DNA from: an uncultured Mycoplasmatota bacterium
GTDB lineage: Bacteria > Bacillota_I > Bacilli_A > RF39 > UBA660
Reading direction: 5' to 3'
DNA length: 64,000 bases
NCBI GenBank assembly: GCA_947302655.1
Contig: CAMYVW010000003.1
Coordinates: 12,280-76,279, forward strand
Below the pieces are notes generated by a model, which searched no databases, had not been told where the DNA came from, and worked only from the letters and a program-made list of their open reading frames with translations. The translations under genes were made by a program, and so were the position numbers. Positions 22,158-39,231 of this stretch are shown piece after piece (the first letter of the stretch is position 1; each line of letters opens with the position of its first letter).

Positions 22158-22163
22158 CTAAAT

Positions 22164-22734: not shown

Positions 22735-22768
22735 AATAATCACTTCAAACATGAAGTGATTATTTTTA
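22735..22768. terminator. bidirectional terminator between convergent genes
   Basis: AATCACTTC-AAACAT-GAAGTGATT plus a T-run. Confidence 0.55.
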
Positions 22769-23986
22769 TAAATCAGATTTATTTACAGTTATAAGTGGAA
22801 TAACCTTACAAACAGCTGCTCCATCATCAATATCAATAGTTGATGTATTCTCATTATTTCTTATAACTTTAAAACCATTTTGATTAGATTCACTAGAATA
22901 AAGCCAGTAACAATTAGTATTAACAAGGTAACTATATTTATTATTCATAAAAGAAAAACTACCATTACTTGTTCTAACTTTATTTATAATATTATTGTAA
23001 TCAGCATTAGAATCCATATCTCCTATTATTTGTGGTGATATATTAGTGCCACTAAAAGTAGAATTAAATATATCATATGATAATACCTTAATAATAGTAT
23101 TAAGTGATAATTCACTTACTGTTGCATTCCAAGACGAAGTATAAGAACTTAAACTAGAACTATAGTTATTATATGTAGATGTAGGATAGTTATCATATAT
23201 ATTAGGTAATAAAGTAAGTGTTGCATTACCTTTTTTACTATCATAATCTAATACAGTTGTACTTAAACATGTTTGTGAAAGTGAATCACAACCTTTATTT
23301 TGAACTACATCATATAAAATAACATCACCAAGATTATATGTCATATCAGATGCTTCATTTGAATCAATATATTGTTCTGCAGCTAGTTCAATTACTATTT
23401 GAATAGAAGGTCTAATAGAATAACTATTATCACTGCTATGTCTTTGTTGTTCTTGATTTTGAAAAGTATATGAGTTTCTTCCCCAAGTTGAATCTAAAGC
23501 ATCATTTCCAGAATCAAGTGGCCATGAAATAGATACTTCAAATTGGGTTTCATCATTATTATTTTTAACATATCGTTTATTTAAATTTATATTTATATGA
23601 AACGGATAATCATGAGATAAAATATTCTCTAAACTTTTTTGATTCTGTCCTGTGGTAACAGCTGTTACGTTTGTATCAAATATTCTTGCAGATTGAATAT
23701 TATATGATAAAGCAGCATTTGAATCTCCTTTATTTTGTATCTTAACTAATTCAGTTACAGTCTCCATACCAGGATAAATATCATCAAGTGTAACAACTAT
23801 ATTATTAGTTACCACTTCATTATCCTTTTTCATTTCAATATACCATGACTGGATATCAACATCAGCAGATACTCTTTTTAATCCACTATATGCAAACCAT
23901 GCATATGTAGTAAATAGAAAAGTAGCTGCAACAAAAAAAAGTGGGATTATATAAATTTTAAGACGTTTCTTAAAAAGTTTTTTCAT
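22766..23986 (-). CDS. TasA/camelysin-like secreted protein with SipW-cognate signal peptide (distal gene of the array)
   Basis: N-terminal K-rich segment, TM, then TTYAWFAYSG (compare TasA GGTWAAFND). Next comes …LDDIYPGMETVTELVKIQNKGDSNAALSY (compare TasA NLKPGDKLTKDFQFENNGSLAI). Confidence 0.6.
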   Translation of the reverse strand: MKKLFKKRLKIYIIPLFFVAATFLFTTYAWFAYSGLKRVSADVDIQSWYIEMKKDNEVVTNNIVVTLDDIYPGMETVTELVKIQNKGDSNAALSYNIQSARIFDTNVTAVTTGQNQKSLENILSHDYPFHININLNKRYVKNNNDETQFEVSISWPLDSGNDALDSTWGRNSYTFQNQEQQRHSSDNSYSIRPSIQIVIELAAEQYIDSNEASDMTYNLGDVILYDVVQNKGCDSLSQTCLSTTVLDYDSKKGNATLTLLPNIYDNYPTSTYNNYSSSLSSYTSSWNATVSELSLNTIIKVLSYDIFNSTFSGTNISPQIIGDMDSNADYNNIINKVRTSNGSFSFMNNKYSYLVNTNCYWLYSSESNQNGFKVIRNNENTSTIDIDDGAAVCKVIPLITVNKSDL

Positions 23987-23998: not shown

Positions 23999-24562
23999 TT
24001 ATTTTTCTTCTTCTGTTCTTTTTTTCTCCTCTTTATTCATAAGTGTAGATATTATTTCTGTAGAAATAATGATTAATACAGGAATTATAATGAATAAATA
24101 AAATCCTACATTAGTACTAACTATTTTATATATAAAAGATATTATTAATGATTTATATATAACTTTACCATATAGTTGATCTTCAGATACAATTGGGTCT
24201 TCTACCATATTAGCAAGACCTTTTGCTCTAAAATATAACTTACCATCAACTTTCTCAATGCCAACAACTTGGTGAGTAATAACTTTATCTTTAAAACTGT
24301 TTCTCACTCCAAGATAACTAATAGTATCACCAACTTTAATGTCCTTTGGTTCAACTTCCTTAGCAATTAAAACATCACCAACTTTATATTTTGGTTCCAT
24401 TGATCCAGTAACAACAGTAAACATTCTAAAATTAAATATAGAAATTTTATTATTACTAAATCTTTGTAAACAAACACAGATAATAAAAGCAAACATAAAT
24501 ATAAAAAATATGGCTTTTAGAACTGTAAAACTAATCTTAAATACTTTATTGTCTTTTAACAT
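23999..24562 (-). CDS. sipW: SipW-type (archaeal/ER-type) signal peptidase I
   Basis: VVTGSMEPKYKVGDVLIAKEVEPKDIKVGDTISYL…VITHQVVG… matches B. subtilis SipW, with an N-terminal TM and a C-terminal TM anchor. Confidence 0.8.
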   Translation of the reverse strand: MLKDNKVFKISFTVLKAIFFIFMFAFIICVCLQRFSNNKISIFNFRMFTVVTGSMEPKYKVGDVLIAKEVEPKDIKVGDTISYLGVRNSFKDKVITHQVVGIEKVDGKLYFRAKGLANMVEDPIVSEDQLYGKVIYKSLIISFIYKIVSTNVGFYLFIIIPVLIIISTEIISTLMNKEEKKRTEEEK

Positions 24563-24573: not shown

Positions 24574-25710
24574 CTACAAGTACTCACTTGTTTTTGACAA
24601 ATAGTCTTCCATTTCTTTTTGAAATTTTTGTTTAATATCATTACTTCCAACTGCATTTGGATTTTTCTTTTTCTCCATTTCAGCACTTAAAAGCTTTAAT
24701 AGTTCAGATTCTTTAATTTTAATTCCATTTTTTAATAGTATATTTACGGCATTTTGAACCTGATTCATAACAATTAATAGAGCATAACTCTTAAGTTTTT
24801 CTTTTTCTACTTTTTTATCTCTTGTAATAGAATCTAAAGCATAATAATTCATTAAAAATGCCTCATCCATGATGCTTTTAATTAGTTTTCCACTTTTAAT
24901 TTTACCAGATTCTATATCATCTGCTTCACTGTTCATAACACTATATAAGTAGTCCCATAATTTTAAAGCCATTTGAAAGTTTGGATTCTTTAAAATTAAG
25001 TTAGTTTTTTTAATAGGCGGTGATACAAGTGGAGCATGAAGTTTTTTTAATGAAGTGATTAAAGTACTTGCAAGCCAAGGATTAATATAAGTCTTTTTTA
25101 TACTTGCAAGTTTCTTTTTAAGATTTTCAACTATTTTTTCAAAATCATTATCACCATTATTAACAATATTAGTTGGTACAGTTACTAAATTTAACTCTAC
25201 CATTACTTTATCTCTACCATTTGTAGTTTCAGCTCTATATTCTAAAGTTTTTTCATTCTTTGGAACAATATTTTTTAGAGCTTCTTCTTTCTCTTGAATA
25301 AACTTTAATAAATTTATAATTAAAGTATAAATAAATCTATTTTCATAAGTATTATATGTTTCTTCTCTAAATAAAACTAATAACTTAGATGGTAAAACAT
25401 CACCAGTTTTTTCATCTATTTTATCAATATAATCAGTATGTTTAGATAAATCTTTAATACTTTCAATACTAGTTTTTCTGGCTTTTTCAATTTTTGTAAC
25501 ATTAGTTTCACCAACTAGTACTACTTTGGGATTACGAACAATATTGTCAATATATGGGCAAACTTCTTCAATAATTTCAAGCCACTCTAATGAGTTAATA
25601 TCACTATTAAGTGAAGCATCAAACTTGATAGATGATTTGTTGTTTTTAAGAAAGTTTTGACTATTTTTCTTAAGCATCTCATCTACAGTTAAATTAATAA
25701 CCTTTCCCAT
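24574..25710 (-). CDS. McrC-like partner protein of the adjacent McrB-family GTPase; no obvious PD-(D/E)xK motif
   Basis: An 11-nt gap separates it from sipW and a 21-nt gap from the GTPase. The segment ETYNTYENRFIYTLIINLLKF resembles the McrC N-domain motif (…LPNRLIKSALLRLL…). The C-terminal half appears helical and has no recognisable nuclease signature. Confidence 0.35.
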   Translation of the reverse strand: MGKVINLTVDEMLKKNSQNFLKNNKSSIKFDASLNSDINSLEWLEIIEEVCPYIDNIVRNPKVVLVGETNVTKIEKARKTSIESIKDLSKHTDYIDKIDEKTGDVLPSKLLVLFREETYNTYENRFIYTLIINLLKFIQEKEEALKNIVPKNEKTLEYRAETTNGRDKVMVELNLVTVPTNIVNNGDNDFEKIVENLKKKLASIKKTYINPWLASTLITSLKKLHAPLVSPPIKKTNLILKNPNFQMALKLWDYLYSVMNSEADDIESGKIKSGKLIKSIMDEAFLMNYYALDSITRDKKVEKEKLKSYALLIVMNQVQNAVNILLKNGIKIKESELLKLLSAEMEKKKNPNAVGSNDIKQKFQKEMEDYLSKTSEYL

Positions 25711-25731: not shown

Positions 25732-27273
25732 TTATGCAGACTTCTTAAGTCTTTCTAGGAACTCGATACATTCTTTCATATTTCCATTACCGAATTCTTT
25801 ATTTAAATATTTAATAAATCCATCAATTTCATCGCGTATTAATATTAAGTTTAATTGTTCAAATTTTCTTAATACTTTTTTAGCTAAGAAGTAATCGATA
25901 CCTGCAACTTCAGTACCTCCACAAGCTACATATACTGGAGCAAATACTTTTAACTGTTTCATAATACGATTACCGAAAGCAATTCTAAAATGTTCAATAA
26001 CATAATTATCAAGTTTATTAATAATATCTATACCTTTATCAGAAATAGCATACTTTTCAGTAGCTTCTTTAAATAGATCTTCTAAATAACTTGAGTTAAT
26101 ATCCATAGCTTCTTGTTCACGGCAAGTAAATGGATCAATTTTTTCGTTAATATCAATAGGCATTGCTCTATCGTAAACCTTATCTGTAACCATGAATGTT
26201 GAGTCATCGTTATTAATTGTACCAATATACCATAAGTTACCAGGAAGTCTCAATTTACCATGTTCTAGTAATTTAGGATCATCTGGCCATGTAGTTGTAA
26301 CAAGTTCAATAATCCATTCTTTACGGTTTGGAACTTCTAGAACTGATAACATTTCTGCAAAATAATATTCAACACGAGCAATATTCATTTCATCTAGAAT
26401 AATTGTATGGATATCATCATCAAATCTAGATAAGTATAATTCTTCAAGAACATTACTTTCATTAAACTTCTTTGTAAACTCATTGAAATATCCTAAAAGC
26501 TCTGTTTTATCACGCCAAGATGGTTGAACAGATGCAATACATGAGTTATGTTTAACGAATTTTCCCCATGCATATGCTAAGGAAGTTTTACCTGTTCCAG
26601 AAATACCTTGTAGGATTATAAGTTTACTACAGGCAAGTCCACCAAAGAAAGCTCTAAGTAAGCTTTCATTGTAATATAAATGTAATTGAGATGCTGCAAA
26701 ACATCTAAAGTTATCAATTAATTCTTCAAGATTAAAATTACCATTGTAATTTTTAGGTTTAAAGTTTTTCATAGCTTCATCAATACGAATTAATTTAGGG
26801 AATCTTGCAGTACCTGCATTTGGATCAGCATCTGGATTAGCGTTTTCTTCACCTGGAAGTCCAGATGAGTCTTCTCCTCCTTCTCCTGGTTTAAGTCCTA
26901 ACTGTGAAACCTTCATAGCCATAAGTTCATCTTTTTCTTTCATCAACTTACGAACTTTTTTATTAAGGTTATCTATTTCATCTAACAATTCATCTTGATT
27001 TAACTTTTGTTTTCTTAATCTAAAATATTTTCTTACTTTAGTAAATATTAAAAATAATACTCCAAGAATTATTACGACTAAGAAAAGAACTGTTATAACA
27101 ACAAAAATCCATTCAACAGCACCAAAACTACTTTTATAATTATCTAGTACTTTTTTGTAGTCAAAATAATTAAAGATTTCTTTAATACCATTAAACATAC
27201 CTTTAAATATCATACCTACGCCGTTAAAAAAAACAGAAGTAAATTCGTAAAAAAATCTAAAAAATGTATTCAT
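25732..27273 (-). CDS. membrane-anchored McrB-family (AAA_5) AAA+ GTPase
   Basis: Walker A LQGISGTGKTSLAYAWGKF. The McrB-type Walker B and downstream region IILDEMNIARVEYYFAEMLSVLE…WYIGTINNDDSTFMVTDKVYDRAMPIDI resembles McrB FIIDEINRANLSKVFGEVMMLME…GLMNTADRSL…DYALRRRF. The N-terminus has a TM helix EWIFVVITVLFLVVIILGVLFLIF, a coiled coil and a Gly/Pro/acidic linker. Confidence 0.7.
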   Translation of the reverse strand: MNTFFRFFYEFTSVFFNGVGMIFKGMFNGIKEIFNYFDYKKVLDNYKSSFGAVEWIFVVITVLFLVVIILGVLFLIFTKVRKYFRLRKQKLNQDELLDEIDNLNKKVRKLMKEKDELMAMKVSQLGLKPGEGGEDSSGLPGEENANPDADPNAGTARFPKLIRIDEAMKNFKPKNYNGNFNLEELIDNFRCFAASQLHLYYNESLLRAFFGGLACSKLIILQGISGTGKTSLAYAWGKFVKHNSCIASVQPSWRDKTELLGYFNEFTKKFNESNVLEELYLSRFDDDIHTIILDEMNIARVEYYFAEMLSVLEVPNRKEWIIELVTTTWPDDPKLLEHGKLRLPGNLWYIGTINNDDSTFMVTDKVYDRAMPIDINEKIDPFTCREQEAMDINSSYLEDLFKEATEKYAISDKGIDIINKLDNYVIEHFRIAFGNRIMKQLKVFAPVYVACGGTEVAGIDYFLAKKVLRKFEQLNLILIRDEIDGFIKYLNKEFGNGNMKECIEFLERLKKSA

Positions 27274-27275: not shown

Positions 27276-29282
27276 TTATTTATACTCTCCTATTCTTTTT
27301 AAAATATTATCAATAATTATTTTATCATAAATTTGTTTTGGTATGTTTTTTGATAACTTGCTTAAATCCATTTTTTTATCCGTAAAATAATAATCTGACA
27401 TAAAGATATAAGCTAGTTCTTCACTTGTGTATTCCTTATATTCGTCAAAAATCAAAGCAAATAAATATCCTTTTTTTCTTAATCTCATTATATCATCATT
27501 ATTTTGCAAAATATTAGAAACTGTAGAAGTAATTATAATATGATTTTTTGCATATTCATTATCAATAATAGATGCTATTCTATCTAGTTTCTTATCTTTT
27601 CCGTATAATGGATTAGGAATATAAACAAAATATTTAGCGTTGCTATTACCATTTAAAATATCTTTAACTACTCTACATAAAATTAGATTAAATAAAACAG
27701 ATAGTTTATCTTCTGATACAATTCCATCACTATAAGTTTTATCAACAATATATTTACTATAAACCTTGCTAAACTTAATATTATAGTTTAAATAAACACC
27801 GAAGTAATTAGGTTCATCTTTAAATCTATTATATATTGCTATAAAAGAATTTGTTTCAAATTTCTTAATAATTTCATTAATAATTTCACTTGAATATCTA
27901 ATAACAGCTTTAATATTATTTAGTAACAAGTCATTATCTACATCAAAATACTTATGTAATTCTTTCTCAAAATCAATATTTTTCTTATCTTCTATATCAT
28001 ATATAAATAATAATGCATTAGAGTAAAGTTCTATTGCTTTAGTCTTTGTATCATCATTTTGATTCTTCTTTATTAAAGCTTTCTTATTATCGTTAAAAAT
28101 CATCTTAAAAGATTTTCTTTCTTCAGGTAGTGAATAATATTTTAAATAAACATATTGTTTAATAAGTTCGCTTCTAAAAGAAGATTTTTTAATATAAGAA
28201 TATTCATCATCTAATAAAAGATCAATTATTTCGTTATACATTATATTTTTGATAATAAATAATTTATCAACGATATTTTTAGCCTTTTTAGCATTAATTT
28301 TTTCTCTTAAGTAATCCTTAGTAATTACTTTTTCTTCTTTCTCTTCTTCTATTTCTTCTGCTTCCAAAACTATATCATCTTGTTTAATTTTAACATCTAC
28401 TTTTTGATCATCTTCAACTGGTTTAATAGATGTATCACTATTTGGTTCTTCAATATCATCAACTTTAATGATCCTTAATACTGCAGTTTTAGATAAATCT
28501 TCTTCTTTTATCTTATTATCTTCATTAAATTCAACTACATTACCTGACTCACCATCAACAGTAACTTTTCTAAATAGAATAGTTTTACTCATTTCATCTT
28601 CAGGTTCATCATCTTCATCGTCATCAGATGCAAATACATCAGAATAATCAGGTTTAAATTTATTTTCTTCACTTGATGTAGTATTAGTAACATTAGTTAC
28701 TTTTATAGTATCATTTCGATGTTTAAAACTTCTAATCTTATTTTTAATTATTCCAATATACTTATTTAATATCTTATTAGAAGATTTCTTTCCAGCATTT
28801 AAATAAAGGTTAACAAAATACAATGTAATAATTAAGAAAATAATAACTATAGGATTAAAAATAGTTTTTTTAAGGAAACCAAAAGAGTGAAGAACTTTTT
28901 TTACTTTACCAACAATTTGGCTTCTATCAATTGGTTTATCTTTAGCATTATTAGCATCACCTTTAGTTACAAAAGAATCTTGGTAGGCTTCAACTACACG
29001 GTGTGTAATAAAATTATTATCCTGTTTATATGTAATAATATCACCTATTTTGATATTATTATCACTTTTAACTAAAATCCAATCTCCAATTTCAACTGAT
29101 CCATGCATACTGCCAGTTTGAATTTCAAATAGTGAATAACCAAATAAACTAGAATGATCATTTTTTAAGATTTTAACTTGAATAAAAGAATAAATAGAAG
29201 CAAGCAAAAAAAGGGCAAATAATACTATTAAAGCATTTAAAGCATAATCAGTAATTTTACTAAAAACTTTTACTTTCTTCAT
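27276..29282 (-). CDS. SipW-type signal peptidase fused to a ~450-aa C-terminal (predicted cytoplasmic) domain of unknown function
   Basis: N-terminal TM, then QTGSMHGSVEIGDWILVKSDNNIKIGDIITYKQDNNFITHRVVE…TKGDANNAKDKPIDRSQIVGKVKKV, which carries the SipW catalytic Ser/His boxes. A second TM follows, then an acidic linker DDDEDDEPEDE, then a 450-aa domain. The protein is 668 aa. Confidence 0.65.
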   Translation of the reverse strand: MKKVKVFSKITDYALNALIVLFALFLLASIYSFIQVKILKNDHSSLFGYSLFEIQTGSMHGSVEIGDWILVKSDNNIKIGDIITYKQDNNFITHRVVEAYQDSFVTKGDANNAKDKPIDRSQIVGKVKKVLHSFGFLKKTIFNPIVIIFLIITLYFVNLYLNAGKKSSNKILNKYIGIIKNKIRSFKHRNDTIKVTNVTNTTSSEENKFKPDYSDVFASDDDEDDEPEDEMSKTILFRKVTVDGESGNVVEFNEDNKIKEEDLSKTAVLRIIKVDDIEEPNSDTSIKPVEDDQKVDVKIKQDDIVLEAEEIEEEKEEKVITKDYLREKINAKKAKNIVDKLFIIKNIMYNEIIDLLLDDEYSYIKKSSFRSELIKQYVYLKYYSLPEERKSFKMIFNDNKKALIKKNQNDDTKTKAIELYSNALLFIYDIEDKKNIDFEKELHKYFDVDNDLLLNNIKAVIRYSSEIINEIIKKFETNSFIAIYNRFKDEPNYFGVYLNYNIKFSKVYSKYIVDKTYSDGIVSEDKLSVLFNLILCRVVKDILNGNSNAKYFVYIPNPLYGKDKKLDRIASIIDNEYAKNHIIITSTVSNILQNNDDIMRLRKKGYLFALIFDEYKEYTSEELAYIFMSDYYFTDKKMDLSKLSKNIPKQIYDKIIIDNILKRIGEYK

Positions 29283-29351: not shown

Positions 29352-29894
29352 TTACGAGTTTTCTATTTCATCATCATTTTTTCCATATTTTATCTCAATT
29401 ATTAATGTGTATAATTGATAAATAAATAGGAAGAAGTTAGGAACTAATATTATAAACAAAAAGCCCCATTTAGATTCAATAACTGAAAGATATGTACCAA
29501 TATTAGAATAAGACTTAGTTCCAGTTCCCATTATAAACTCTTTTGAATATGTTTCGCCATTTTCAAATGATATTGAATCTTGATCTTCAAATACTTGACC
29601 TACTTTACCATATTGAACAGATGCTCCACCTTGACCATCTAAATGATAAGTAAATACCATATCTCCAGCTTTATAATCCTTAATTAGTTTATTTTCAACA
29701 AAAACCAAAGATCCTTTTTTATAATTTTCAGATGAAAATTCTTTTTTTACTATTAATAACGAAGTATCACCAAATTGTGTTATTCCATACTTATTATGAT
29801 TTAAAACAAGCACTGTCATTGTTATTGTAAATGCAAGAAAAATAACAATTAATGTTGTTGTAAATATCTTTTTAACTAACTTAAATCCTTTCAA
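29352..29894 (-). CDS. SipW-like paralogue with degenerate catalytic motifs (possible pseudo-peptidase)
   Basis: Same N-TM, beta-domain, C-TM architecture and KKGSLVFVENKLIKDYKAGDMVFTYHLDG box as SipW. It has ITQFGDTSLLIV where GSMEP should be, and no THR box. Confidence 0.4.
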   Translation of the reverse strand: MKGFKLVKKIFTTTLIVIFLAFTITMTVLVLNHNKYGITQFGDTSLLIVKKEFSSENYKKGSLVFVENKLIKDYKAGDMVFTYHLDGQGGASVQYGKVGQVFEDQDSISFENGETYSKEFIMGTGTKSYSNIGTYLSVIESKWGFLFIILVPNFFLFIYQLYTLIIEIKYGKNDDEIENS

Positions 29895-29951: not shown

Positions 29952-30839
29952 CTAATTACACCCACTAGACTCTCGTATTACAAAATCATTTAAAGATAAA
30001 TCACTATTATTACTTCGTTTGAAAAATTTAATTTTAGAACTAGAATCTGCATTAACAATAGTTTTAAATCCATTAACATAATCATTAGCATCATACTGAA
30101 GATTAGTAGTTAAATTATTAATATCTAATACTCTATTAGTACTATCAAAAGTAATTTGTAAGCACTTATTTTGTGAATAAGTATTATTCAATATTAATTC
30201 ACTAAAATTTGAATAAACCTTATTTATATTAGTTATTTCTCCACTACTTTTAATATTTCTTTGTAACTTAAAAACACCAGATAAACTCTTTGAATAAGGA
30301 CTTGTACTAGTTGCAGTTATTCTAACATCAATTTCTTTATCTTGATCATTTTGATTATTAAAAACAATATTAAAATAGTTGTTTTGCGATACTTTTTGTT
30401 TTACCCAATTATATCCATCGACTTCACATTCAGTCTTATTATAAGATGTAACATCAGTTTCATCTTTCTCATTTACACATCTAGCATTACTTGATAAAAC
30501 AAGATTTAAAGTACTATTATTACTATCGTTAATTGTACAACTAGCATTAATATTCTCAGTTAAAACTTCACACGTTACAGTATATCTAATATCAAAATCA
30601 GTTATTAAGTTTTCACTAGCATAATTTTTCAAAGTAAATGTTGTACTACCACCATCCCACAGAAGATTGGTATTATTTTTATTGGTTTTTAATTCGTTAC
30701 TTTCGAAATAAAATCCCTTAGATTTTAAGTAGTATCCTTTCATATAACTAGAAGTATATCTACCAAAAGAAATGATTGCTAAAGAAAATGATATAGATAT
30801 AAGTATAAACATAATTAATACTTTTTTCTTTTTATTCAT
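29952..30839 (-). CDS. secreted Cys-containing Asn/Ser-rich protein with SipW-cognate-like signal (minor fibre/accessory component)
   Basis: MNKKKKVLIMFILISISFSLAIISFGRYTSSY…; 295 aa with six Cys. Confidence 0.45.
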   Translation of the reverse strand: MNKKKKVLIMFILISISFSLAIISFGRYTSSYMKGYYLKSKGFYFESNELKTNKNNTNLLWDGGSTTFTLKNYASENLITDFDIRYTVTCEVLTENINASCTINDSNNSTLNLVLSSNARCVNEKDETDVTSYNKTECEVDGYNWVKQKVSQNNYFNIVFNNQNDQDKEIDVRITATSTSPYSKSLSGVFKLQRNIKSSGEITNINKVYSNFSELILNNTYSQNKCLQITFDSTNRVLDINNLTTNLQYDANDYVNGFKTIVNADSSSKIKFFKRSNNSDLSLNDFVIRESSGCN

Positions 30840-30847
30840 AAAATCAC

Positions 30848-31375
30848 CTATATTTTTTGATAACTTTTGATTTCAACATTAATATAATCAATTAAGTTTT
30901 TATACTCTTCAGTGTTATAGTTTCCATCAAAAGTAATTCGAAGTTCAAATGTATTTAATTCATTTCTTGTATGAGATAGTTCAAACGAATTAGTTTTACA
31001 AACTAGTTCATTATTTTCATTTCTACTATAAGTCTCATCACAAGTTAGAACTAAAGTATTATCCTTGTATAAATTTATTACAAGTGGAGCATAATGTGGT
31101 GTTATAATTGACAATTCATATAAAATTGATACATCACTTCTTGTATTATTCTTCACGTTAGTAATAGAAAAATTATGACTCATACTCTCTCCAGGAGATA
31201 GCTCACCTACAGGTATTTCTAATCTGTCAGTTACCTCAGAGTTAAAGACAAAACCAGCAAGTTTTTGATCAACACTTGATGCAACTACACCTGAATTAAA
31301 ATAAGAGTATGTAATTCCAAGACTAAACGTTAAAATTAAGAGTGAAATAATAATTATTAATACTTTTATTCTCAT
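30848..31375 (-). CDS. compact TasA/CalY-like protein with SipW-cognate signal
   Basis: SLGITYSYFNSGVVASSVDQKLAGFVF… then …LSPGESMSHNFSITNVKNNTRSDVSILYELSI, which is the TasA-fold core. 175 aa. Confidence 0.5.
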   Translation of the reverse strand: MRIKVLIIIISLLILTFSLGITYSYFNSGVVASSVDQKLAGFVFNSEVTDRLEIPVGELSPGESMSHNFSITNVKNNTRSDVSILYELSIITPHYAPLVINLYKDNTLVLTCDETYSRNENNELVCKTNSFELSHTRNELNTFELRITFDGNYNTEEYKNLIDYINVEIKSYQKI

Positions 31376-31384
31376 ATTACACCT

Positions 31385-34300
31385 CTACCTAATTATAAAG
31401 TACTTATTAATAGTATTAATGTACTCATCACCATTATATAAATCAAATGCTAATCTATAATATCCTTTTAACATATTAGTTGTATTAATAAATAAATCTA
31501 AATTATTAACAGTTGCAGGATTATTAGCATTATATAATGTAGCCCTTCTTGCAAGATAATAGACATTATTTACATATTGATCAAGTTGTGTTGAAGTATA
31601 ATCTTGAATATCAACAAGTGTATACTGCTGATTATATGCAGATAAAGTATTCTTTTTATAAAGTGAATATTTAATATTAGGATTATTTAATCCACTAACT
31701 ATTACACTATAATCAAGCTCTGCAGTAGATGGCTTATTATATATCATATCTTTATTATTAGTAACATCAAATACATATGTATAATTCTTTTCTTCTGTAG
31801 AATTAATTAAAGGAATTAAAACTCTACTATTACTATTTTGTGAAATAATAGTTTCACCATCATACGAAATATATGGAGTTATAGTAATGCTATAATTTCC
31901 ATCTAATAGATTATTTAAAGATCTATATGTAGAAATCTTAAGAATAAAGCTAGAAGTAGTATTAGTATTAAGATTTATTTTTATATTACCATTATTATCA
32001 GGAACATAAATATTATCAGAAACGCTAAATATAATACTCTTATAATAGTCTCTATTTATTACATTACCATTACTATCAACAATATTAATTAAAACTCCAA
32101 TAGTTTTATCATTAAAGAAGGTATCAGTAGCTTGTGAATTTAAAACATTGTTATAAAGTGTAACATTAGTTACAGAATCTGTATTATAGTTAATATTTTG
32201 ATTAAAGTTTGTTGTTAAAGAGTAACTAGTATTATAACTATCAGATGTTAAAACACTAAATGTGGTTTCATTGATATATGGTCTTACAATATTCATATTG
32301 TTATCAAGACCAACAATATTTAAGTAAATATTATGCATATCAGAACTTATAGTTGAAGAACTAAAATCAATGATTAAAGAAAATTCTTCGCTCTGAACAG
32401 ATCCACTCTGATATAAATTATTATTTCTTTTTCCAACAAGATTAAATAAACCAAAACTATAATAATATTTATTATTTAAGCTAATTGCATCATTTTGATT
32501 AACAGTATATGAATATGTATTATTATTAGTTTTATCAAATAACATAATACGTGTGCCGGTTGGCAGTAATGCATTAGAAATTAAATAGTGATCGAAACTT
32601 TGTTGATTTGTTGATGCATATGTTATATTCATCATTATTGATGATTTTTTTGTAATGATATTTCCTGATTCAAAACCAACAGGTTTTAAATCAGAAACAG
32701 CATATCCATCATAAATAATAAGTGGTGTTGATGCATAAGACACATTTCCAGCCAAATCAGTTGATCTAACATATAAAATATACTTTCCAGAAGAAGTTAT
32801 ATCAATTGGATTTACATAATCAGTCCACTGAACTGAACTTAAATCATTAATATCATTGTTTAAAAAATAATTTAAAGAAATACTATCTTGTGAATTATCA
32901 GTGCTAGATGCACTAATAGTTGCACCAGTATTAATGTAAACTTCATTATTATTAATTGAAGAATAAATGTTATTATTAAAATCTATACTAATTAAAGGAC
33001 CAGTTTTATCAATAATAATATTATCAGAATTAATATATGTAACTTTACCAGATAAATCAACAAACTTAACATAAATTATATAAGAGCCTTCATTTTGAAC
33101 TACTACAGGATCTGTATATGAAGTCCATGAAACATTATTTAAATCACTTGTTGATAACACTTGATCTTGATTACTTATATAATAATACTTTGTAGTTTGA
33201 AGAAGCTGACTATCATCTGCGATTGTAAAAGTTATATTAGAAGATATATACTTCTTATCAATAAATAGTGAGTATGTATCATAAGTATCAAGGTTTAAAT
33301 ATAATTTTGTATGATTATCACTGTTATCATCAAAATATAAAAGAGGATAATCACTTCCATTAAATACCCATTTATTTTGACTATTTGAACTATAATTATT
33401 TAAAGATACAAACTCATTGTAACTAGTTAGATATGTTTTATCTTTTAAATTATTATCAATTACCATATTTGATAAAACTAAATTATTATTTCTTGCATAA
33501 GTATAATAAATATTTTGTGAATTTATATTACTATTATAAAGATGTGAAATTATATCATTATCAGTTGTTAAAAAACTGTTTTCAAAAACTAAATTTGAAT
33601 TTATTAAATATCCAATAAAGCCATTACTTATAGTTCCAGCATTATAAGAATTACTAATTGAACTATTGCCCTTTAAAACTCCTATTAAATTTGAATCATT
33701 TGAATAACCATTTCCATAACTATAAGAACTATCGATATTAGTATCAATCGCATAACCTATTAATAAACCAGTTATATCTCCACCATAAACGCTTGCTCTA
33801 TTAATAATATTTGAAATTGATGAACCTTCAGAATATGCAGCAACAGCACCATTTATTGATAATGATATTTGGTCATAGTCTGCATAAAGTGTTGTTTCAT
33901 CATAAAGACTAGCGCTAGATTCATCAATTAAAAGTCCACTTATATAAATACTATCAAGTGTTCCATTTGTTAAATTTGTAGTTAAAATAGCTTTATTCTT
34001 AACAACAATATTATTTAAATATAAGGATGATACATCACCACTTATATTTTCAAATAATGGAGAGTTGCTATAATAACCATATATAGTCTTAAAATTACCA
34101 TCTAAATAACCTTCAAAATTCGACATTGAAGGGAACATATTAAGAGTTCCTACTTCTTCTTGAGTAAAATCAGAAGAGCTATAATACTTATTATCATTAA
34201 CAAAATATGCATTACCATTTAAATTATATTTTAACGTATCATTTTCATAATAAAAATAACCGTCATTAATTACAATATCATTTATAATTTTAAAATATTT

Positions 34301-34555
34301 ACCATCATATGTATCATTTTCCAAGTTACTTGCAAAATAAGCAAATTCTTCAGGTGAAGAAATAATATACGGATTATTTCTTGTTCCACTACCAGATCTA
34401 TATGATGAAGCAACATTACCTGACCATACTCTAGCATCTGATAATGATGTTCCCTTTTTAAATCTGCCAAATGCCGGTAATATACAAAAAGGAAGTGATA
34501 TTAAAGCAACCATAAAAATAGCATAAATTATTTTTCTATTTTTACTTATACTCAT
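31385..34555 (-). CDS. 1056-aa secreted Asn/Ser/Tyr-rich protein (putative fibre tip/adhesin) with SipW-cognate-like signal
   Basis: Signal …LISLPFCILPAFGRFKKGTS. The GTRNNPYIISSPEEFAYF segment is typical of beta-helix surface proteins. Composition is extremely N/S/Y/T-rich throughout. Confidence 0.5.
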   Translation of the reverse strand: MSISKNRKIIYAIFMVALISLPFCILPAFGRFKKGTSLSDARVWSGNVASSYRSGSGTRNNPYIISSPEEFAYFASNLENDTYDGKYFKIINDIVINDGYFYYENDTLKYNLNGNAYFVNDNKYYSSSDFTQEEVGTLNMFPSMSNFEGYLDGNFKTIYGYYSNSPLFENISGDVSSLYLNNIVVKNKAILTTNLTNGTLDSIYISGLLIDESSASLYDETTLYADYDQISLSINGAVAAYSEGSSISNIINRASVYGGDITGLLIGYAIDTNIDSSYSYGNGYSNDSNLIGVLKGNSSISNSYNAGTISNGFIGYLINSNLVFENSFLTTDNDIISHLYNSNINSQNIYYTYARNNNLVLSNMVIDNNLKDKTYLTSYNEFVSLNNYSSNSQNKWVFNGSDYPLLYFDDNSDNHTKLYLNLDTYDTYSLFIDKKYISSNITFTIADDSQLLQTTKYYYISNQDQVLSTSDLNNVSWTSYTDPVVVQNEGSYIIYVKFVDLSGKVTYINSDNIIIDKTGPLISIDFNNNIYSSINNNEVYINTGATISASSTDNSQDSISLNYFLNNDINDLSSVQWTDYVNPIDITSSGKYILYVRSTDLAGNVSYASTPLIIYDGYAVSDLKPVGFESGNIITKKSSIMMNITYASTNQQSFDHYLISNALLPTGTRIMLFDKTNNNTYSYTVNQNDAISLNNKYYYSFGLFNLVGKRNNNLYQSGSVQSEEFSLIIDFSSSTISSDMHNIYLNIVGLDNNMNIVRPYINETTFSVLTSDSYNTSYSLTTNFNQNINYNTDSVTNVTLYNNVLNSQATDTFFNDKTIGVLINIVDSNGNVINRDYYKSIIFSVSDNIYVPDNNGNIKINLNTNTTSSFILKISTYRSLNNLLDGNYSITITPYISYDGETIISQNSNSRVLIPLINSTEEKNYTYVFDVTNNKDMIYNKPSTAELDYSVIVSGLNNPNIKYSLYKKNTLSAYNQQYTLVDIQDYTSTQLDQYVNNVYYLARRATLYNANNPATVNNLDLFINTTNMLKGYYRLAFDLYNGDEYINTINKYFIIR

Positions 34556-34571
34556 AACATCACCTTCTTAT

Positions 34572-35642
34572 CTAAAATTCATAACCTGCTAAATCTTTTT
34601 CAAGATCTAAACTTAAATTTAGTGGAGCTCCCTCAGAATGAACTTCTAAAGCATCTATATCTTGTCCTTCTATCCAAAGGTAAACTCTAACTTTAGTAAT
34701 TCCATTTGGTATTTGAAACAATGGTTCAGAAAATTCATCGTCTTTTCTTGTTTCCTGAAGAGCAAAGTGTTCTGTATCAAAAGAACCGCTAGAAGAAATA
34801 AGCCCACTTTTATGATCAAGTCTTCTTCCTTCTTTAATAACTGCATACGTAGGAACATATGTGTTATCAACAAGATCAATACCAAATTCTTTTACAGCAT
34901 CAATAGATTCTTGATTGTGCTTCAAACTATTTGGTTCATAAATAAGCGAAACGCATTCATTATTACACTGTAAATTTTGAATAGTATATACATCAGCTTT
35001 TAAATCCGTTTCTCCAATTTTTACAAATCCGAGTCTAATAGAGTTCATAATATCTTCCATTTTTTCCCTAGTTTCTTGATCTGCAGTTTCATCAAACTCA
35101 ATATAAGTTCCACTACTTAAATAAAGATTATCTTTATATGGAGATCCAGATACATTCTTTAAAAATATATCAAAAGCTATATAGTTACTATACTCACTTG
35201 GACTATCTTCTGAAATCAAATCAGTATTAACAAATCTTTTACCTCTTCTTGCTTTATCAGTATATTTTCCCATTGATCCTGAATAAACATCAAATTTATC
35301 ATTGTTTGGAGAAGAAATACCATTTGATGAAACTGACCAAAGACCATTAGTAGCCCATTGATTAGTATGATTAGGATAATTTTTCTTAACTTCATGTATA
35401 ACAGACTCTCTAGATATTTCAATAGAATCAGAAAAATTAACACCATCTAAAGAAATAAATAAACCTGTATCTGTTGATACTTTAACATTAAAGAATTTAA
35501 TTTTAACATTTAAGGATGCTGAAAACCATGCATAAGTTGCAAAAAGAAAAACTACACCAACAAAAAATGTAACAAGAAAGATATATTTAGTTTTCTTAGA
35601 AAACTTTGGAATATGAAGTTTTTCTTTTATGTTAGTTTTCAT
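34572..35642 (-). CDS. TasA-like fibre subunit paralogue (SipW-cognate signal)
   Basis: …FLFATYAWFSASLNVKIKFFNVKVSTDTGLFISLDG…, and a C-terminal motif KVRVYLWIEGQDIDALEV shared with the two major-subunit genes. The RBS GGAGGA precedes the ATG at 35642. Confidence 0.55.
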   Translation of the reverse strand: MKTNIKEKLHIPKFSKKTKYIFLVTFFVGVVFLFATYAWFSASLNVKIKFFNVKVSTDTGLFISLDGVNFSDSIEISRESVIHEVKKNYPNHTNQWATNGLWSVSSNGISSPNNDKFDVYSGSMGKYTDKARRGKRFVNTDLISEDSPSEYSNYIAFDIFLKNVSGSPYKDNLYLSSGTYIEFDETADQETREKMEDIMNSIRLGFVKIGETDLKADVYTIQNLQCNNECVSLIYEPNSLKHNQESIDAVKEFGIDLVDNTYVPTYAVIKEGRRLDHKSGLISSSGSFDTEHFALQETRKDDEFSEPLFQIPNGITKVRVYLWIEGQDIDALEVHSEGAPLNLSLDLEKDLAGYEF

Positions 35643-35654
35643 AATATCCTCCAT

Positions 35655-35734: not shown

Positions 35735-37420
35735 TTATTCATTAGTAACAGTTACAGTTACAACTTCAGTAGCTACGTTTCCAGCTTCATCTGCTACTTC
35801 ATATAATACTCTGTATACACCAGGTACTGCATTATTTACAGTTCCTGTTATAGTAGCATGAATTCCAGATCCTTCTGGTCCATACCATTCATCTGCATCA
35901 TCTGCAGTGTCATGAGTATATGGAGTTAAGTTATCAGTAATAGCTGTAATTGTAGGTTGAGTGAATGTACCGTTCTTAGCTATAGTTTGATTTTGAGATC
36001 CGCTTAATGTAATAACAGGAGCAGTCTTATCTATAGTTTTTAACTTAGTAATAATTTGAGCTTCTGTTGGACTTACACCTTCACCAAGTTCTAATTCTGT
36101 AGCTAAAGCTTCAATTATTTCAGCTCTTGTTTGGTTAGGTCCTTCACCTTGATTTAGTACTGGTCCTTGATAGTTAATATCATCTTCAGTAAATCTTTCT
36201 TTAGTGAATCCGAAGTTAACAGCTATTTGTTTACCTATAGAAGCAAAGTCATAGTTATCAATGTCTTGTCCTTCAATATAGATATACACTCTAACTTTTG
36301 TAATACTATTTGGTGCTAAAGTAATGAATGTAGGTCTTTCAACACCAGTTTTTAATTTCATTGTATCAGTAAAGTATGGATATGCAAATAAGTATTTACC
36401 AGCATTTCCTTCAGCAGCACTAATAGCAATAGCCTCAGTATCAGCTATATCTCCAGTATAGCTATTAAATGCACTACCATCATAGATATCAACTGAATTC
36501 ATAGCAGTGATTTCTTTACCAATCGCATATGTTGGATATGTTTGACCATCAACTACTGTTCCACACGCACCTTCATAAGAAGCAGCTAAGCTTGTATCAG
36601 TTCCAGCAGCTTTTCTTGCTCTACAAGTAGTATTATACCAAGTTAGAGCATCTGGTACGTGGTTTGTATCATTTGGTTCCCAAATTTGAGCTGTACGGCA
36701 AATACCAGTTACAGTCGAATCAGTTGCACAAGTAATACCTTGAATTGTTGATGCATCTGTATTAGTTGCCTCTACACGACCAATTTGTGCAAATGCAACA
36801 CGAACAGAATTTTCAATACCAGTGTTTGCAACGCCTGTTGATCCAACTACAACCTTAGAATCATTTGTTAAATAAATTGCTTCTTCGTTAAGTGGATTAT
36901 TTGTCTGGTAATATTCAGCACCAGATGAGTTTTTAATAAATAAGTCGAATGCAACATAACCATCAGGTGTTGTAGAATCGTTATTAACTCTACTAGCCAT
37001 TAATCTATAACCACCTGCAGTAGTTGTTAAACTACCTTTTTCAAATAATGTTAAACGACTTGTTGTTGTATTAATAATACCAATTGATGACATAGGAATT
37101 AATCCACGTCCACCCCAAGTATTTGTATTAGTTGGGTATGGATTTCCTTGTGCAGTTAATGTATTATCTGCAGCAGTCTCTGCAGCAGGGTTTCTAAAGT
37201 TTGTACTGTTAATTGCTACTGTATCGCTCCAGTTTACACCATCAAGTGATAACTGTAAGTCTTCTGTTGCAGCAATACGAACTTCGAATGGAGAAACATT
37301 AACAGTTCTCATACCAATAAACCATGCATAAGTTGCTGTTCCTAGGACGATTGCCATAAAAGTAAATACTATAGCAAGTCGCAATATTCTTTTTTTCTTA
37401 CTAGAATTCTTCCTTTTCAT
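35735..37420 (-). CDS. TasA-like major fibre subunit with C-terminal Ig-like (DUF5011-type) domain
   Basis: …LGTATYAWFIGMRTVNVSPFEVRIAATEDLQLSLDG…VRVYIYIEGQDIDNYDFASIGKQIAVNFGFTKERFTE… followed by …NAVPGVYRVLYEVADEAGNVATEVVTVTVTNE. Its Thr/Ala/Gly-rich composition and GC-richer codon use resemble the ribosomal-protein genes in this window. Confidence 0.6.
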   Translation of the reverse strand: MKRKNSSKKKRILRLAIVFTFMAIVLGTATYAWFIGMRTVNVSPFEVRIAATEDLQLSLDGVNWSDTVAINSTNFRNPAAETAADNTLTAQGNPYPTNTNTWGGRGLIPMSSIGIINTTTSRLTLFEKGSLTTTAGGYRLMASRVNNDSTTPDGYVAFDLFIKNSSGAEYYQTNNPLNEEAIYLTNDSKVVVGSTGVANTGIENSVRVAFAQIGRVEATNTDASTIQGITCATDSTVTGICRTAQIWEPNDTNHVPDALTWYNTTCRARKAAGTDTSLAASYEGACGTVVDGQTYPTYAIGKEITAMNSVDIYDGSAFNSYTGDIADTEAIAISAAEGNAGKYLFAYPYFTDTMKLKTGVERPTFITLAPNSITKVRVYIYIEGQDIDNYDFASIGKQIAVNFGFTKERFTEDDINYQGPVLNQGEGPNQTRAEIIEALATELELGEGVSPTEAQIITKLKTIDKTAPVITLSGSQNQTIAKNGTFTQPTITAITDNLTPYTHDTADDADEWYGPEGSGIHATITGTVNNAVPGVYRVLYEVADEAGNVATEVVTVTVTNE

Positions 37421-37448
37421 ATATATTTCCTTTCCTTCTCAGTCTATA

Positions 37449-39056
37449 TTATTCTGTTACAGTAACAGTAGAAATTGCTTCAGCATAATTTCCTTGCCAG
37501 TCACTTACTAAGTACCTAACTACATATGTACCTGCAGTAGCAACTACTGGGTTAGTTACTTGAACCTTAGTAGTTAAATCAAATGTACACTTATTATTAG
37601 CCCATGTTCCTTGAGCAGTGTTACATTTAGCTTCAGTATCTTCAGCACCAACGTCTGATGCAGTTACACCAGCCATTGGGTTATAACTTGCAACTTGTGC
37701 AACTGTTAAGTTCTTAGTAGCTTCTACACCAGCTATAATAGGTTTAATCTCATCACCTGTTGGCATGTTAGGTCCATCTATACCTTGAGCTTCTTCTTCA
37801 GTAAATCTCTCTTTAGTAAATCCAAATGAAACATTTATTTGTTTTCCTATAGATGAGAAATCATAGTTATCAATATCTTGTCCTTCAATCCATACATAAA
37901 CTCTTATCTTAGTAATACTATTAGGAGCAAGTGTAATAAATGTTGGGCGATTAATACCAGTTAAATTTTTCTCGGTATCAGTAAAGTAATCGTAGGCATA
38001 TAGTGGTTGGCTATCACTATAATTTGTTCTTGTAGTAGCAGAATATCCATTATATTGAGTTCCATCATAAATATCAACTTTATCAGCTATATCAACAACA
38101 CGTCCTACAGCATAAGTATTTTTTGCAGTACCATTAGCAACTGCTGTACAAGCTCCATCTAATGTATAAGATGTTGCAAGTGTAATATCAGTTGGATCTG
38201 TTATTGGATCAACTGCAGCCTTTCTAGGTCTACAAGAAGTATTGTAATAACTTATAGCATTATTAACGTGAGCAATATCATTTGGTTCCCAAATTTGAGC
38301 TACACGGCAAATACCAGTTACAGGAGAGTTTTCTCCAGGAACACATTTAATTCCAGTTATTGTATTAACATCAGTTGTTTTTGCATTAACACGACCAATT
38401 TGTGCAAAAGCTACACGAACTGAATTTTCAAGTCCAGTATTAGCAACTCCAGTTGAACCAACACTAACTTGAGAATCTGTAGTTAAATAAATTGGTTCCT
38501 CATTCAAAATATTATCTTCTGTGTAGTATGCTTGACCTGAGAAGTTCTTAACAAATAAGTCAAATGCAATATATCCACCATTTTCAGTATTAAATCCATA
38601 AGCATTTACTGAATTTGCATACTGCTGATTAGTTTGATAATTGTGAATTCGGCTTGCAAGAAGTCTATAACCACCAGGTGTAGCAGTTAAACTACCCTTC
38701 TCATACATCTTCATTGTAGAAGATGCTGTGTCGATTTCACCAATTGAAGAAATTGGTTTTAGGCCAGGATTGACAGCTCCAGTACCAAGTCCTGCCCAGT
38801 TATTAACATTACCTGTATAAGATACTGAACTAAAGTTACCACTATCTATTGTAACAGTCGTATCCCAGGTATTTCCATCAAGAGATAAAAGCAAACTATC
38901 AGTACTTGCTATGTCAATTTCAAAGCTTTGAACATTAACAGCTCTCATACCGATAAACCATGCATAAGTTGATACTGCAAATACTATTAATAAAAGAAAT
39001 GAAATAACAACTAATCGCTTAACTCTTTTAGATTTTAGATTTTCATTTTTGTTCAT
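37449..39056 (-). CDS. TasA-like major fibre subunit, tandem paralogue of 35735-37420
   Basis: …AVSTYAWFIGMRAVNVQSFEIDIASTDSLLLSLDG…IRVYVWIEGQDIDNYDFSSIGKQINVSFGFTKERFTE…; it has the same architecture and codon bias. Confidence 0.6.
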   Translation of the reverse strand: MNKNENLKSKRVKRLVVISFLLLIVFAVSTYAWFIGMRAVNVQSFEIDIASTDSLLLSLDGNTWDTTVTIDSGNFSSVSYTGNVNNWAGLGTGAVNPGLKPISSIGEIDTASSTMKMYEKGSLTATPGGYRLLASRIHNYQTNQQYANSVNAYGFNTENGGYIAFDLFVKNFSGQAYYTEDNILNEEPIYLTTDSQVSVGSTGVANTGLENSVRVAFAQIGRVNAKTTDVNTITGIKCVPGENSPVTGICRVAQIWEPNDIAHVNNAISYYNTSCRPRKAAVDPITDPTDITLATSYTLDGACTAVANGTAKNTYAVGRVVDIADKVDIYDGTQYNGYSATTRTNYSDSQPLYAYDYFTDTEKNLTGINRPTFITLAPNSITKIRVYVWIEGQDIDNYDFSSIGKQINVSFGFTKERFTEEEAQGIDGPNMPTGDEIKPIIAGVEATKNLTVAQVASYNPMAGVTASDVGAEDTEAKCNTAQGTWANNKCTFDLTTKVQVTNPVVATAGTYVVRYLVSDWQGNYAEAISTVTVTE

Positions 39057-39119
39057 ATACTTTCCCTTCCATATATTTAATAGAGTAATAATTGCTTATA
39101 CATGTTGCCTACAATCTAC

Positions 39120-39175
39120 TATATTACATATAGATTTTAACCTTATATTTGTCAAAAGTCAATTAAAATGTCATA
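39120..39175 (-). promoter_or_regulatory. promoter of the major-subunit genes
   Basis: Minus-strand TTGACA (39151-39156), a 17-nt spacer, then TATATG/TAATAT, in the 160-nt gap 5' of 37449-39056. Confidence 0.4.
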
Positions 39176-39187
39176 TTTTGTAGAAAT

Positions 39188-39231
39188 AAAAGACGAAAAA
39201 TTATTACTATTCGTAACTATTTTTCGTCTTT
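39188..39231 (-). terminator. intrinsic terminator after the 538-aa gene
   Basis: 12-bp perfect stem AAGACGAAAAAT / ATTTTTCGTCTT followed, on the minus strand, by a U-run. The stem overlaps the last codons KDEK*. Confidence 0.55.

Follow-up and report, generated by a model that had tools for sequence, protein, structure and literature searches.

A SipW-class signal peptidase fused to a degenerate EAL-like module in a CoCoPALM-type cassette of uncultured Bacilli

The DNA analysed here, which we call the window, is a stretch of 64,000 nucleotides from an uncultured Mycoplasmatota bacterium (contig CAMYVW010000003.1, positions 12,280 to 76,279; assembly GCA_947302655.1). Its minus strand contains an open reading frame (ORF) of 668 amino acids (aa), 27276..29282, which starts with ATG, runs without interruption and joins a SipW-class signal peptidase to a long C-terminal appendage. 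A first reading of this sequence (the original prediction) had proposed such a fusion, with the appendage inside the cell as a possible sensor or effector domain. It lacked what proved to be the decisive context: the genes directly downstream are those of an McrB-like GTPase anchored in the membrane and of an McrC-like protein with DUF2357, which flag the locus as a CoCoPALM cassette. The parts of the fusion gene are listed below by window coordinates, with the basis of each assignment; TM stands for transmembrane, AF2 for AlphaFold2 and pLDDT for its predicted local distance difference test, a measure of model confidence.

27276..29282 (minus): whole gene, 668 aa plus stop; SipW-class signal peptidase, disordered linker, helical lobe and EAL-like lobe (ORF and full-length orthologues)
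29175..29231 (minus): TM helix 1, residues 18-36, predicted N-terminus inside (Kyte-Doolittle peak 2.45; AF2 helix 2-38; N-terminal tail with 4 Lys/Arg)
28863..29174 (minus): predicted extracytoplasmic peptidase core, residues 37-140 (TIGR02228; LexA/UmuD/signal-peptidase fold)
29109-29111 and 29001-29003 (minus): catalytic codons Ser58 and His94, respectively, in the peptidase core (invariant in 107 sequences)
28797..28862 (minus): TM helix 2, residues 141-162, followed by a Lys/Arg-rich, predicted cytoplasmic stop-transfer stretch (hydropathy 141-159; AF2 helix 144-162)
28326..28796 (minus): acidic, intrinsically disordered linker, residues 163-319 (pLDDT <50 for residues 187-316)
28554..28601 (minus): linker motif copy 1, EDEMSKTILFRKVTVD, residues 228-243 (motif search of 107 fusions)
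28458..28505 (minus): linker motif copy 2, EEDLSKTAVLRIIKVD, residues 260-275 (motif search and alignment)
27858..28325 (minus): all-alpha lobe, residues 320-475, no assigned family (AF2 models)
27279..27857 (minus): degenerate, truncated EAL-like beta/alpha barrel, residues 476-668 (seven predicted strands, no eighth strand or helix)
27705..27785 (minus): most conserved segment of the folded region, residues 500-526 (at least 90% conservation at 15 positions; pLDDT <50 at 502-522)

A database search with the fusion protein returned 382 relatives. Among the best 120, nearly all are 620-800 aa long and cover the whole query, at identities down to 33%, so that the full-length architecture, for which orthologues had been sought, recurs widely. 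When one genome per species was scanned, 111 stretches encoding the C-terminal domain were detected, of which 80 loci were kept; the uninterrupted fusion is present in 77 loci, nearly all of them among these 80 species representatives. The linker varies in length and sequence from one orthologue to the next, yet a stop codon is never present. One could suppose that the long ORF is an artefact, in which an error of sequencing or assembly joined two genes. We rejected this explanation, which is almost certainly wrong, because more than 100 distinct orthologues from independent assemblies carry the fusion uninterrupted (107 distinct sequences from independent projects, 33-99% identical). No support for a merger was found, and no frameshift is needed anywhere in the interval 28600-28800 that had been singled out for such a check. 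In two loci from metagenome-assembled genomes (MAGs), L015 and L033, we observed the opposite situation, the gene being split in two ORFs (a SipW part of 107 aa followed by an ORF of 592 aa in L015, and parts of 187 and 518 aa in L033); these may be frameshift errors or pseudogenes.

The fusion is carried by MAGs that come from samples of gut, rumen and digesters, and for most of them the label reads Bacilli, Bacillales, Mollicutes or Erysipelotrichia. Several cassette contigs (L013, L016, L019, L024 and others) bear the labels Muribaculaceae, Actinomycetes or Ignavibacteriales, which probably reflect mis-binned or mislabelled MAGs rather than a true phyletic spread. The claim that no known SipW has such an appendage stands for the characterised SipW proteins. 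The family itself, however, is common in uncultured Bacilli, where its members are annotated as 'signal peptidase I'.

The assignment of the N-terminal part to SipW is borne out by the presence of the expected sequences (QTGSMHGS, FITHRVVE and TKGDANNAKD) and by a match of residues 18-156 to TIGR02228, the family of signal peptidase I of the archaeal/endoplasmic reticulum (ER) type, with 72.9 bits against a cut-off of 51.85. The match to NF046067, the equivalog family of Bacillus SipW, reaches 50.2 bits, below its cut-off of 190. Since the first cut-off is passed and the second match is only partial, the peptidase belongs to the SipW class but is not an orthologue of SipW itself. It contains a Ser box (TGSM), a His box (THR) and a GDxN...D box, and Ser58, His94, Asp109, Asn111 and Asp115 are invariant across the 107 orthologues. 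This is the Ser/His, rather than Ser/Lys, chemistry of the S26B class, conserved Asp residues included, and as in that class two TM helices (hydropathy, AF2) flank the catalytic domain. In a Foldseek comparison of the full-length model, the peptidase part has the LexA/UmuD/signal-peptidase fold, with Streptococcus pyogenes SipA among the matches. The peptidase is therefore intact in sequence and is predicted to be catalytically active.

The 31 residues that follow TM helix 2 (160-190) include 9 Lys/Arg and no Asp/Glu, and the N-terminal tail has 4 Lys/Arg. Because this distribution fits the positive-inside rule, the catalytic domain is predicted to lie outside the cell, and everything past residue 162 in the cytoplasm. 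A cytoplasmic appendage, as proposed originally, also fits the acidic disordered linker and the two obligatory neighbours of cytoplasmic type.

The acidic DDDEDDEPEDE segment, the Lys/Glu-rich linker and the folded region of about 350 aa anticipated for the appendage were all found, the last corresponding to residues 320-668. This region, which we refer to as the module, gave a pLDDT of 87.6 and a predicted template modelling score (pTM) of 0.85 when modelled alone from a 23-sequence alignment. Profile searches of residues 190-668 against Pfam, NCBIfam, PADLOC and the PDB returned no family. Among 23 members there was no Pfam match to the module at E values up to 10, and none of ten module relatives that were scanned reached a Pfam family threshold. 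In the model, an all-alpha lobe is followed by a beta/alpha lobe that begins with a beta-hairpin, continues with five strand-helix units and ends after the seventh strand.

A weak resemblance of the terminal part to EAL domains had been put forward as speculation. In the predicted structure this resemblance is real at the level of the fold, whereas sequence profiles and catalytic motifs give it no support. The EAL-like fold was found by two methods on two models. One of the methods, Foldseek, independently returned EAL families with the module model, with E values down to 6.6e-5 and a probability of 1.00, and the full-length model agrees. Because structure comparison returns EAL families, we consider the resemblance supported as a fold. 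Among the matches are FimX, LapD, YdiV and STM1697, whose EAL domains are degenerate and non-enzymatic. In contrast, a pattern search of the last 200 residues of the 107 sequences found ExLxR in none, DDFG in one, EGVE in none, and the hydrophobic-Lys-hydrophobic-Asp motif of the KxD strand in three. An hhalign comparison with a profile of four E. coli EAL sequences, in local and global modes, gave no match (probability 0.1%); the database search with E. coli PdeH returned close orthologues only, at least 67% identical.

When positions are assigned by strand order, the sites of the EAL metal ligands would mostly be occupied by Tyr554, Leu585, Phe612 and Phe633, and what would be retained is an acidic residue at 658 (106/107) and Asp/Asn at 613 and 635. 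Aromatic or aliphatic residues fill most of the predicted strand ends of the barrel. Lys562 and Lys565 are 100% conserved, and His500 and Asn501 at least 94%; these four residues have no obvious counterpart in EAL domains. An active cyclic di-GMP (c-di-GMP) phosphodiesterase was rejected on these grounds, as the catalytic motifs are absent from the 107 sequences and the barrel ends after its seventh strand. With the catalytic motifs missing, 'EAL-type' can only denote a degenerate, non-enzymatic domain.

Such a domain might nonetheless be a second-messenger receptor: with c-di-GMP or a different nucleotide, cyclic or linear, as its ligand, it would switch the peptidase from the inside out, in the manner of LapD and LapG, and the GTPase would serve a separate function. 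The c-di-GMP receptors FimX and LapD are among the best structural matches, LapD offers a precedent for a degenerate EAL domain that controls an extracytoplasmic protease, and a few polar positions are conserved at predicted strand ends (His500, Asn501, Lys562, Lys565 and the acidic residue 658). However, no nucleotide- or metal-binding motif of EAL domains survives, there is no profile likeness to them, and the barrel lacks the eighth strand and helix. The lobe before the barrel is all-alpha and has no GGDEF motif, so that the adjacent GGDEF domain of receptors of the FimX/LapD type is missing. YdiV-type EAL-like proteins, which are similarly degenerate, are not known to bind c-di-GMP. Finally, no GGDEF, DDFGTG or PilZ-like motif was found in the 64-kb window or among 1,396 ORFs of about 85 cassette-bearing loci, an argument that is weak since it covers some 20 kb per genome. 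We therefore regard a receptor as rather unlikely, while noting that it would be compatible with the adaptor role considered below.

Residues 500-526, the most conserved segment of the module and of the appendage as a whole, have the consensus (H/Y)N-I-x-F-S-K-V-Y-S-x-Y-I-V-D-K-T-Y-x-E-G-I-V-x-E-D-K. This loop (HNISFSKVYSDYIVDKTYxEGIVxEDK) is also the only part of the module that was modelled with low confidence, with pLDDT <50 at residues 502-522 in both AF2 models. The combination of highest conservation and low model confidence is what would be expected of a segment that folds on a partner, and it suggests that the loop is a candidate partner-binding surface that becomes ordered on binding.

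The linker that tethers the module to the membrane has a conserved feature of its own. Residues 187-316 contain 41 Asp/Glu against 18 Lys/Arg and were modelled with a pLDDT of about 30 (AF2, 37-sequence alignment), as expected of a disordered chain. Within it, a motif with the consensus E-[ED]-[ED]-L-[SED]-K-T-x-[LMF]-[FY]-R-[VIM]-[IV]-x-V-D is present in one to four copies in 103/107 fusions, for a total of 173 copies against 8.5 expected from shuffled sequences. Lys265 and Thr266, in copy 2 of the window protein, do not vary in set A1 and reach a conservation of at least 90% across the 107 fusions. The Thr could be a site of phosphorylation or docking. A strict form of the pattern matched 66 ORFs with the C-terminal domain and none of the other approximately 1,300 ORFs of the cassette loci; it was likewise absent from those cassettes examined in which the module is free-standing.

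The module is found in three architectures. A profile search over 1.84 billion representative proteins returned 370 relatives of the module. In the first architecture it is fused to an active SipW, as in the window (77 loci); in the second it is fused to a pseudo-SipW (P0226/L089 and P0239); and in the third it stands free as a protein of about 320-350 aa (P0205, P0213, P0228 and others). Three loci of the last kind (L005, L090 and L091) have the same type of cassette, with the free-standing module, here about 335-350 aa long, directly upstream of the TM-McrB-like gene and with separate genes for an active and a dead SipW nearby. The linkage to the GTPase is invariant: the McrB-like gene comes next after the module gene in 86/86 loci with room downstream, at gaps of -4 to +13 nucleotides (nt), and the DUF2357 gene follows the McrB-like gene in 71/72. 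The module and the McrB-like and McrC-N-like proteins therefore form a conserved triad, in which the module is a real domain and a third core component of the cassette that has had no family annotation. Since the module fuses to either SipW paralogue, we suppose that the triad is tied physically to the peptidase complex.

These architectures also bear on the idea that there is no coupling at all, the module acting independently, for example as a scaffold for the GTPase, with SipW a mere membrane anchor and the peptidase unregulated. That the module occurs free-standing and on a catalytically dead SipW paralogue speaks for this idea, and it means that peptidase activity in cis is not required. 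Nevertheless, wherever the module is fused, its partner is a SipW-family protein from the same cassette, and fusions to unrelated membrane anchors do not occur; the conserved linker motif is found solely in the tether of the fusion proteins, which argues for a specific tie to the peptidase complex. Independence of this kind seems to us hardly probable.

The fusion gene lies within a tightly packed cassette of about 10 minus-strand genes, which extends from 40.8 kb to 22.8 kb of the window. No terminator-like site was found on the cassette's own strand between these positions, and a promoter scan gave 150 matches where 145 were expected by chance. About 80 species loci show almost no variation in gene order. 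The other genes of the cassette, in their order on the minus strand, are as follows.

35735..40833 (minus): three upstream ORFs, 561, 535 and 538 aa (PF16403 in the 561- and 535-aa proteins; the 538-aa protein by position only)
29952..35654 (minus): four putative fibre or surface subunits, 360, 1056, 175 and 295 aa (N-terminal hydrophobic segments; synteny)
29352..29894 (minus): pseudo-signal-peptidase, 180 aa (weak SipW matches; jackhmmer link to SipW families)
25732..27273 (minus): McrB-like GTPase with a TM helix (58-76) and a coiled coil, 513 aa (PADLOC PDC-M26A, 1.1e-37)
24574..25710 (minus): McrC N-terminal-domain (DUF2357) protein, 378 aa (PF09823, 4.4e-13, no other family)
23999..24562 (minus): second SipW-class signal peptidase, 187 aa (TIGR02228, 83 bits; Ser and His kept in the alignment)
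22766..23986 (minus): putative secreted subunit, 406 aa; hydrophobic segment at the N-terminus, TYAWF motif (position conserved in cassettes)

The gene for the McrB-like GTPase starts 2 nt past the stop codon of the fusion. Structures of E. coli McrB match the GTPase over 186 aa, and the alignment brings both Walker A (GISGTGKT) and Walker B (ILDEMN) into register. Its signature INNDDS fits both NxD with a second D and NxxD, and HMMER aligns it without gaps to the N-T-A-D of MNTADRS. Residues 56-110, which include the TM helix, give an FtsL-type match that lies below the cut-off (E 6e-5), and a heptad-like, Lys/Glu-rich stretch occupies residues 80-125. No nuclease domain was detected by Pfam in the DUF2357 protein.

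Together with the fusion, the window contains three proteins of the signal-peptidase family, the others being the 187-aa SipW and the 180-aa pseudo-SipW, and the same set is present in about 80 loci. In practically all cassettes, the pseudo-SipW gene is the immediate upstream neighbour of the fusion gene. Its product has a topology like that of SipW, but in the alignment its KKEFSS replaces TGSM and its QYGK replaces THR, so that both the Ser box and the His box are lost.

The neighbouring putative subunits have leaders of TasA/camelysin-like appearance. The motif GITYSYF is present in the 175-aa protein and ATYAWF in the 360-aa protein, with looser equivalents in the 295-aa and 1056-aa subunits (ISFGRYTSSY and LPAFGRFKKG); we take the TYSYF/TYAWF motifs to resemble the leader of TasA. 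In the 175-aa family, 8/13 members match PF12389 (camelysin), all below threshold. Of the upstream ORFs, the 561-aa and 535-aa proteins end in a bacterial Ig-like domain (PF16403), and the 538-aa protein has no Pfam match. The 561-aa protein is a paralogue of the 360-aa subunit (BLASTP E 5e-37), with which it has the ATYAWF N-terminus in common, and other loci carry extra copies of the 360-aa type at the position of these ORFs.

The 1056-aa protein (31385-34555, minus) is rich in Asn, Ser and Tyr and has an N-terminal leader and no match in Pfam or NCBIfam. Proteins of this type keep their position in almost all cassettes, while their length ranges from about 490 to 1240 aa; they may be tip adhesins or shaft components. 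At 36-38 kb, the G+C content is 0.35, compared with 0.24-0.29 in the adjoining 2-kb bins.

Outside the cassette, a ribosomal protein L10 leader (Rfam RF00557, 74 bits) lies at 8554-8685 (minus), next to a series of short minus-strand ORFs in close succession. A 190-aa ORF at 22162-22734 (plus) encodes a cell-wall hydrolase domain of the SleB type at residues 74-179; since its listed start falls inside a tRNA-Trp gene (22163-22236, minus), the real start is probably further downstream. The SleB-type domain suggests a walled, possibly spore-forming organism and not a wall-less Mollicute. The L10 leader and the nearby tRNA-Trp gene suggest that the cassette has a core chromosomal location.

Judged by its sequence, the cassette is of the CoCoPALM type. 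This class was named, with its description deferred, in a census of relatives of Type IV restriction systems, where it is placed alongside the CoCoNuT systems (Bell et al. 2024, eLife, PMC11090510). There, the CoCoPALM GTPase is given as an NxD-type McrB fused to an FtsB-like TM and coiled-coil segment, accompanied by a DUF2357 McrC homologue and by signal-peptidase-family proteins thought to be pilus assembly factors (PMC11090510). The McrB-like GTPase of the window, with its TM helix and coiled coil, the adjacent DUF2357 protein and the signal-peptidase proteins correspond to this outline. The portions of that paper's text and supplements available to us mention no peptidase fusion, third component, pseudo-peptidase or set of TasA-like subunits (PMC11090510). 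No follow-up description of CoCoPALM was found in the searchable literature, nor anything relevant on SipW with McrB or SipW with an EAL domain.

The descent of the GTPase raises the question of whether the cassette is a McrBC-derived conflict or anti-phage system, in which the module would be an infection sensor or an effector that replaces the McrC nuclease, and in which the fibre and peptidase genes would serve immunity, for example by abortive infection through remodelling of the membrane or envelope, or by receptor masking. In favour of this, the GTPase matches a PADLOC defence-candidate model (PDC-M26A, 1.1e-37) and the CoCoPALM class has its origin in the restriction census. On the other hand, Pfam, NCBIfam and PADLOC detected no nuclease or toxin domain in the cassette, and in PADLOC the module, the DUF2357 protein and the pseudo-peptidase had no match and the second SipW a chance-level one only (Csx3, E 0.01). 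Moreover, gene order is nearly fixed in the species loci, and the window cassette sits among housekeeping genes (ribosomal genes, the L10 leader and tRNA-Trp). This near-fixed order and these surroundings speak for a core structure of the cell surface and against a variable defence island, and we consider a defence function improbable.

We favour, at slightly better than even chances, a model whereby the fusion is a two-faced membrane hub of a CoCoPALM-type cassette, with the module as an adaptor or regulator that couples the peptidase to the GTPase. On its outer face, the hub would use the peptidase to remove the hydrophobic leaders, with ends of the TYAWF/TYSYF type, from the neighbouring TasA/camelysin-like subunits. 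TM helix 2 would lead into an acidic, disordered tether of about 150 residues with one to four ELSKTxxFRxIxVD motifs, and from there to the folded module inside the cell. The module would not be a phosphodiesterase but a protein-protein adaptor or regulator, a role made plausible by precedent, since the degenerate EAL domains of FimX, LapD and YdiV do comparable jobs. It would dock the peptidase complex to a ring of membrane-anchored McrB-like GTPase with its nuclease-less, McrC-N-type activator. GTP binding and hydrolysis in the cytoplasm would then gate or drive the processing of fibre subunits and their hand-over at the membrane.

Several points weigh against this model. The EAL assignment comes from predicted structure, with profile searches blank, and the conserved His500, Asn501, Lys562, Lys565 and Asp/Glu658 may build a ligand-binding pocket. 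AF2 left both the loop 500-526 and the linker motifs unplaced, so that the interaction surface is a guess. The contact between module and GTPase, and the effect of the module on the peptidase, are read from gene linkage. The GTPase resembles E. coli McrB weakly (E 1e-3), and the identity of the presumed substrates as TasA/camelysin proteins is weak as well (best sub-threshold PF12389 match at E 0.002, and no PDB match). Finally, all carriers of the fusion are uncultured MAGs.

A more far-reaching possibility, which we consider doubtful, is that the McrBC-derived, membrane-anchored GTPase is the motor or gate of an uncharacterised Gram-positive fibre machine, to which the EAL-like module wires the SipW complex. 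The GTPase would have been exapted from restriction, and the SipW complex would consist of the active SipW, the pseudo-SipW and the second SipW. Nucleotide hydrolysis inside the cell would drive or license the cleavage and polymerisation of TasA-like subunits outside. To our knowledge, TasA-type fibres have so far been thought to assemble without energy input.

SipW-class peptidases, degenerate EAL domains and McrBC-derived GTPases are each known separately, and the cassette class has already been named. What we did not find described in the searchable literature are the fusion of a peptidase to an EAL-like domain, the module as a third core component, its EAL-like fold and the linker motif. 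The fusion provides a Rosetta-stone link between the two halves of CoCoPALM, the signal-peptidase and fibre genes on the one side and the McrBC-derived GTPase on the other. The module would represent a highly diverged, probably non-enzymatic branch of the EAL superfamily, which it would widen; we know of no importance of c-di-GMP signalling in the lineages that carry it. If the proposed coupling is true, this would be the first ER-type signal peptidase directly controlled by a cytoplasmic NTPase, and the first restriction-type GTPase recruited to build a surface structure. The carriers are abundant uncultured Bacilli of the gut and rumen, and their surface structures may matter for host attachment.

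The adaptor model can be set beside several known systems. FimX, whose degenerate EAL domain is among the top structural matches of the module, acts in Xanthomonas and Pseudomonas via PilZ on the hexameric type IV pilus ATPase PilB, through protein contacts. Unlike the module, FimX binds c-di-GMP, has a full barrel and a GGDEF domain, and is soluble; its target is a PilB-type ATPase rather than a McrB-type GTPase, and no peptidase is attached to it. LapD of Pseudomonas fluorescens is closer in layout, being a transmembrane protein with a cytoplasmic degenerate EAL domain that is likewise a structural match of the module, and it controls the extracytoplasmic protease LapG, which acts on a surface adhesin. 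However, LapD sequesters a separate protease, whereas the window fusion has its protease in the same polypeptide, and LapD, which binds c-di-GMP, also contains HAMP and GGDEF domains. YdiV/RflP and STM1697, which are EAL-like anti-FlhDC factors (YdiV binds FlhD), differ from the fusion in being soluble, single-domain proteins that are recognisable as EAL-like by sequence and have an unrelated partner.

On the outer side of the membrane, SipA of S. pyogenes, the structural match of the N-terminal domain, is a signal-peptidase-fold protein needed for pilus polymerisation, and it serves pilus assembly without catalytic residues. The 180-aa pseudo-SipW of the cassette, which has lost its catalytic residues, recalls SipA; unlike the window fusion, SipA lacks a cytoplasmic domain, and its pili are of the sortase-built kind. 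With the canonical McrBC of E. coli, the cassette has in common an AAA+ GTPase core with Walker A and B and the N..D signature, and a partner with the McrC N-terminal domain. In contrast to McrBC, the cassette pair has neither a DNA-binding domain nor a PD-(D/E)xK nuclease, and its GTPase is anchored in the membrane.

The nearest comparison for the peptidase itself is SipW of Bacillus subtilis, encoded in the tapA-sipW-tasA operon. The two proteins belong to the same ER/archaeal-type subfamily of signal peptidase I, with two TM helices and Ser/His chemistry, and sipW, like the fusion gene, sits among genes for secreted fibre subunits with an aromatic-rich motif at the end of the leader. SipW is said, from work by Terra and colleagues in 2012, to have a second, peptidase-independent role, which we take to map to its short C-terminal tail. 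B. subtilis SipW is about 190 aa long, whereas the window fusion adds a cytoplasmic extension, as predicted, of about 500 aa, and the cassette has a GTPase pair where the Bacillus operon has none.

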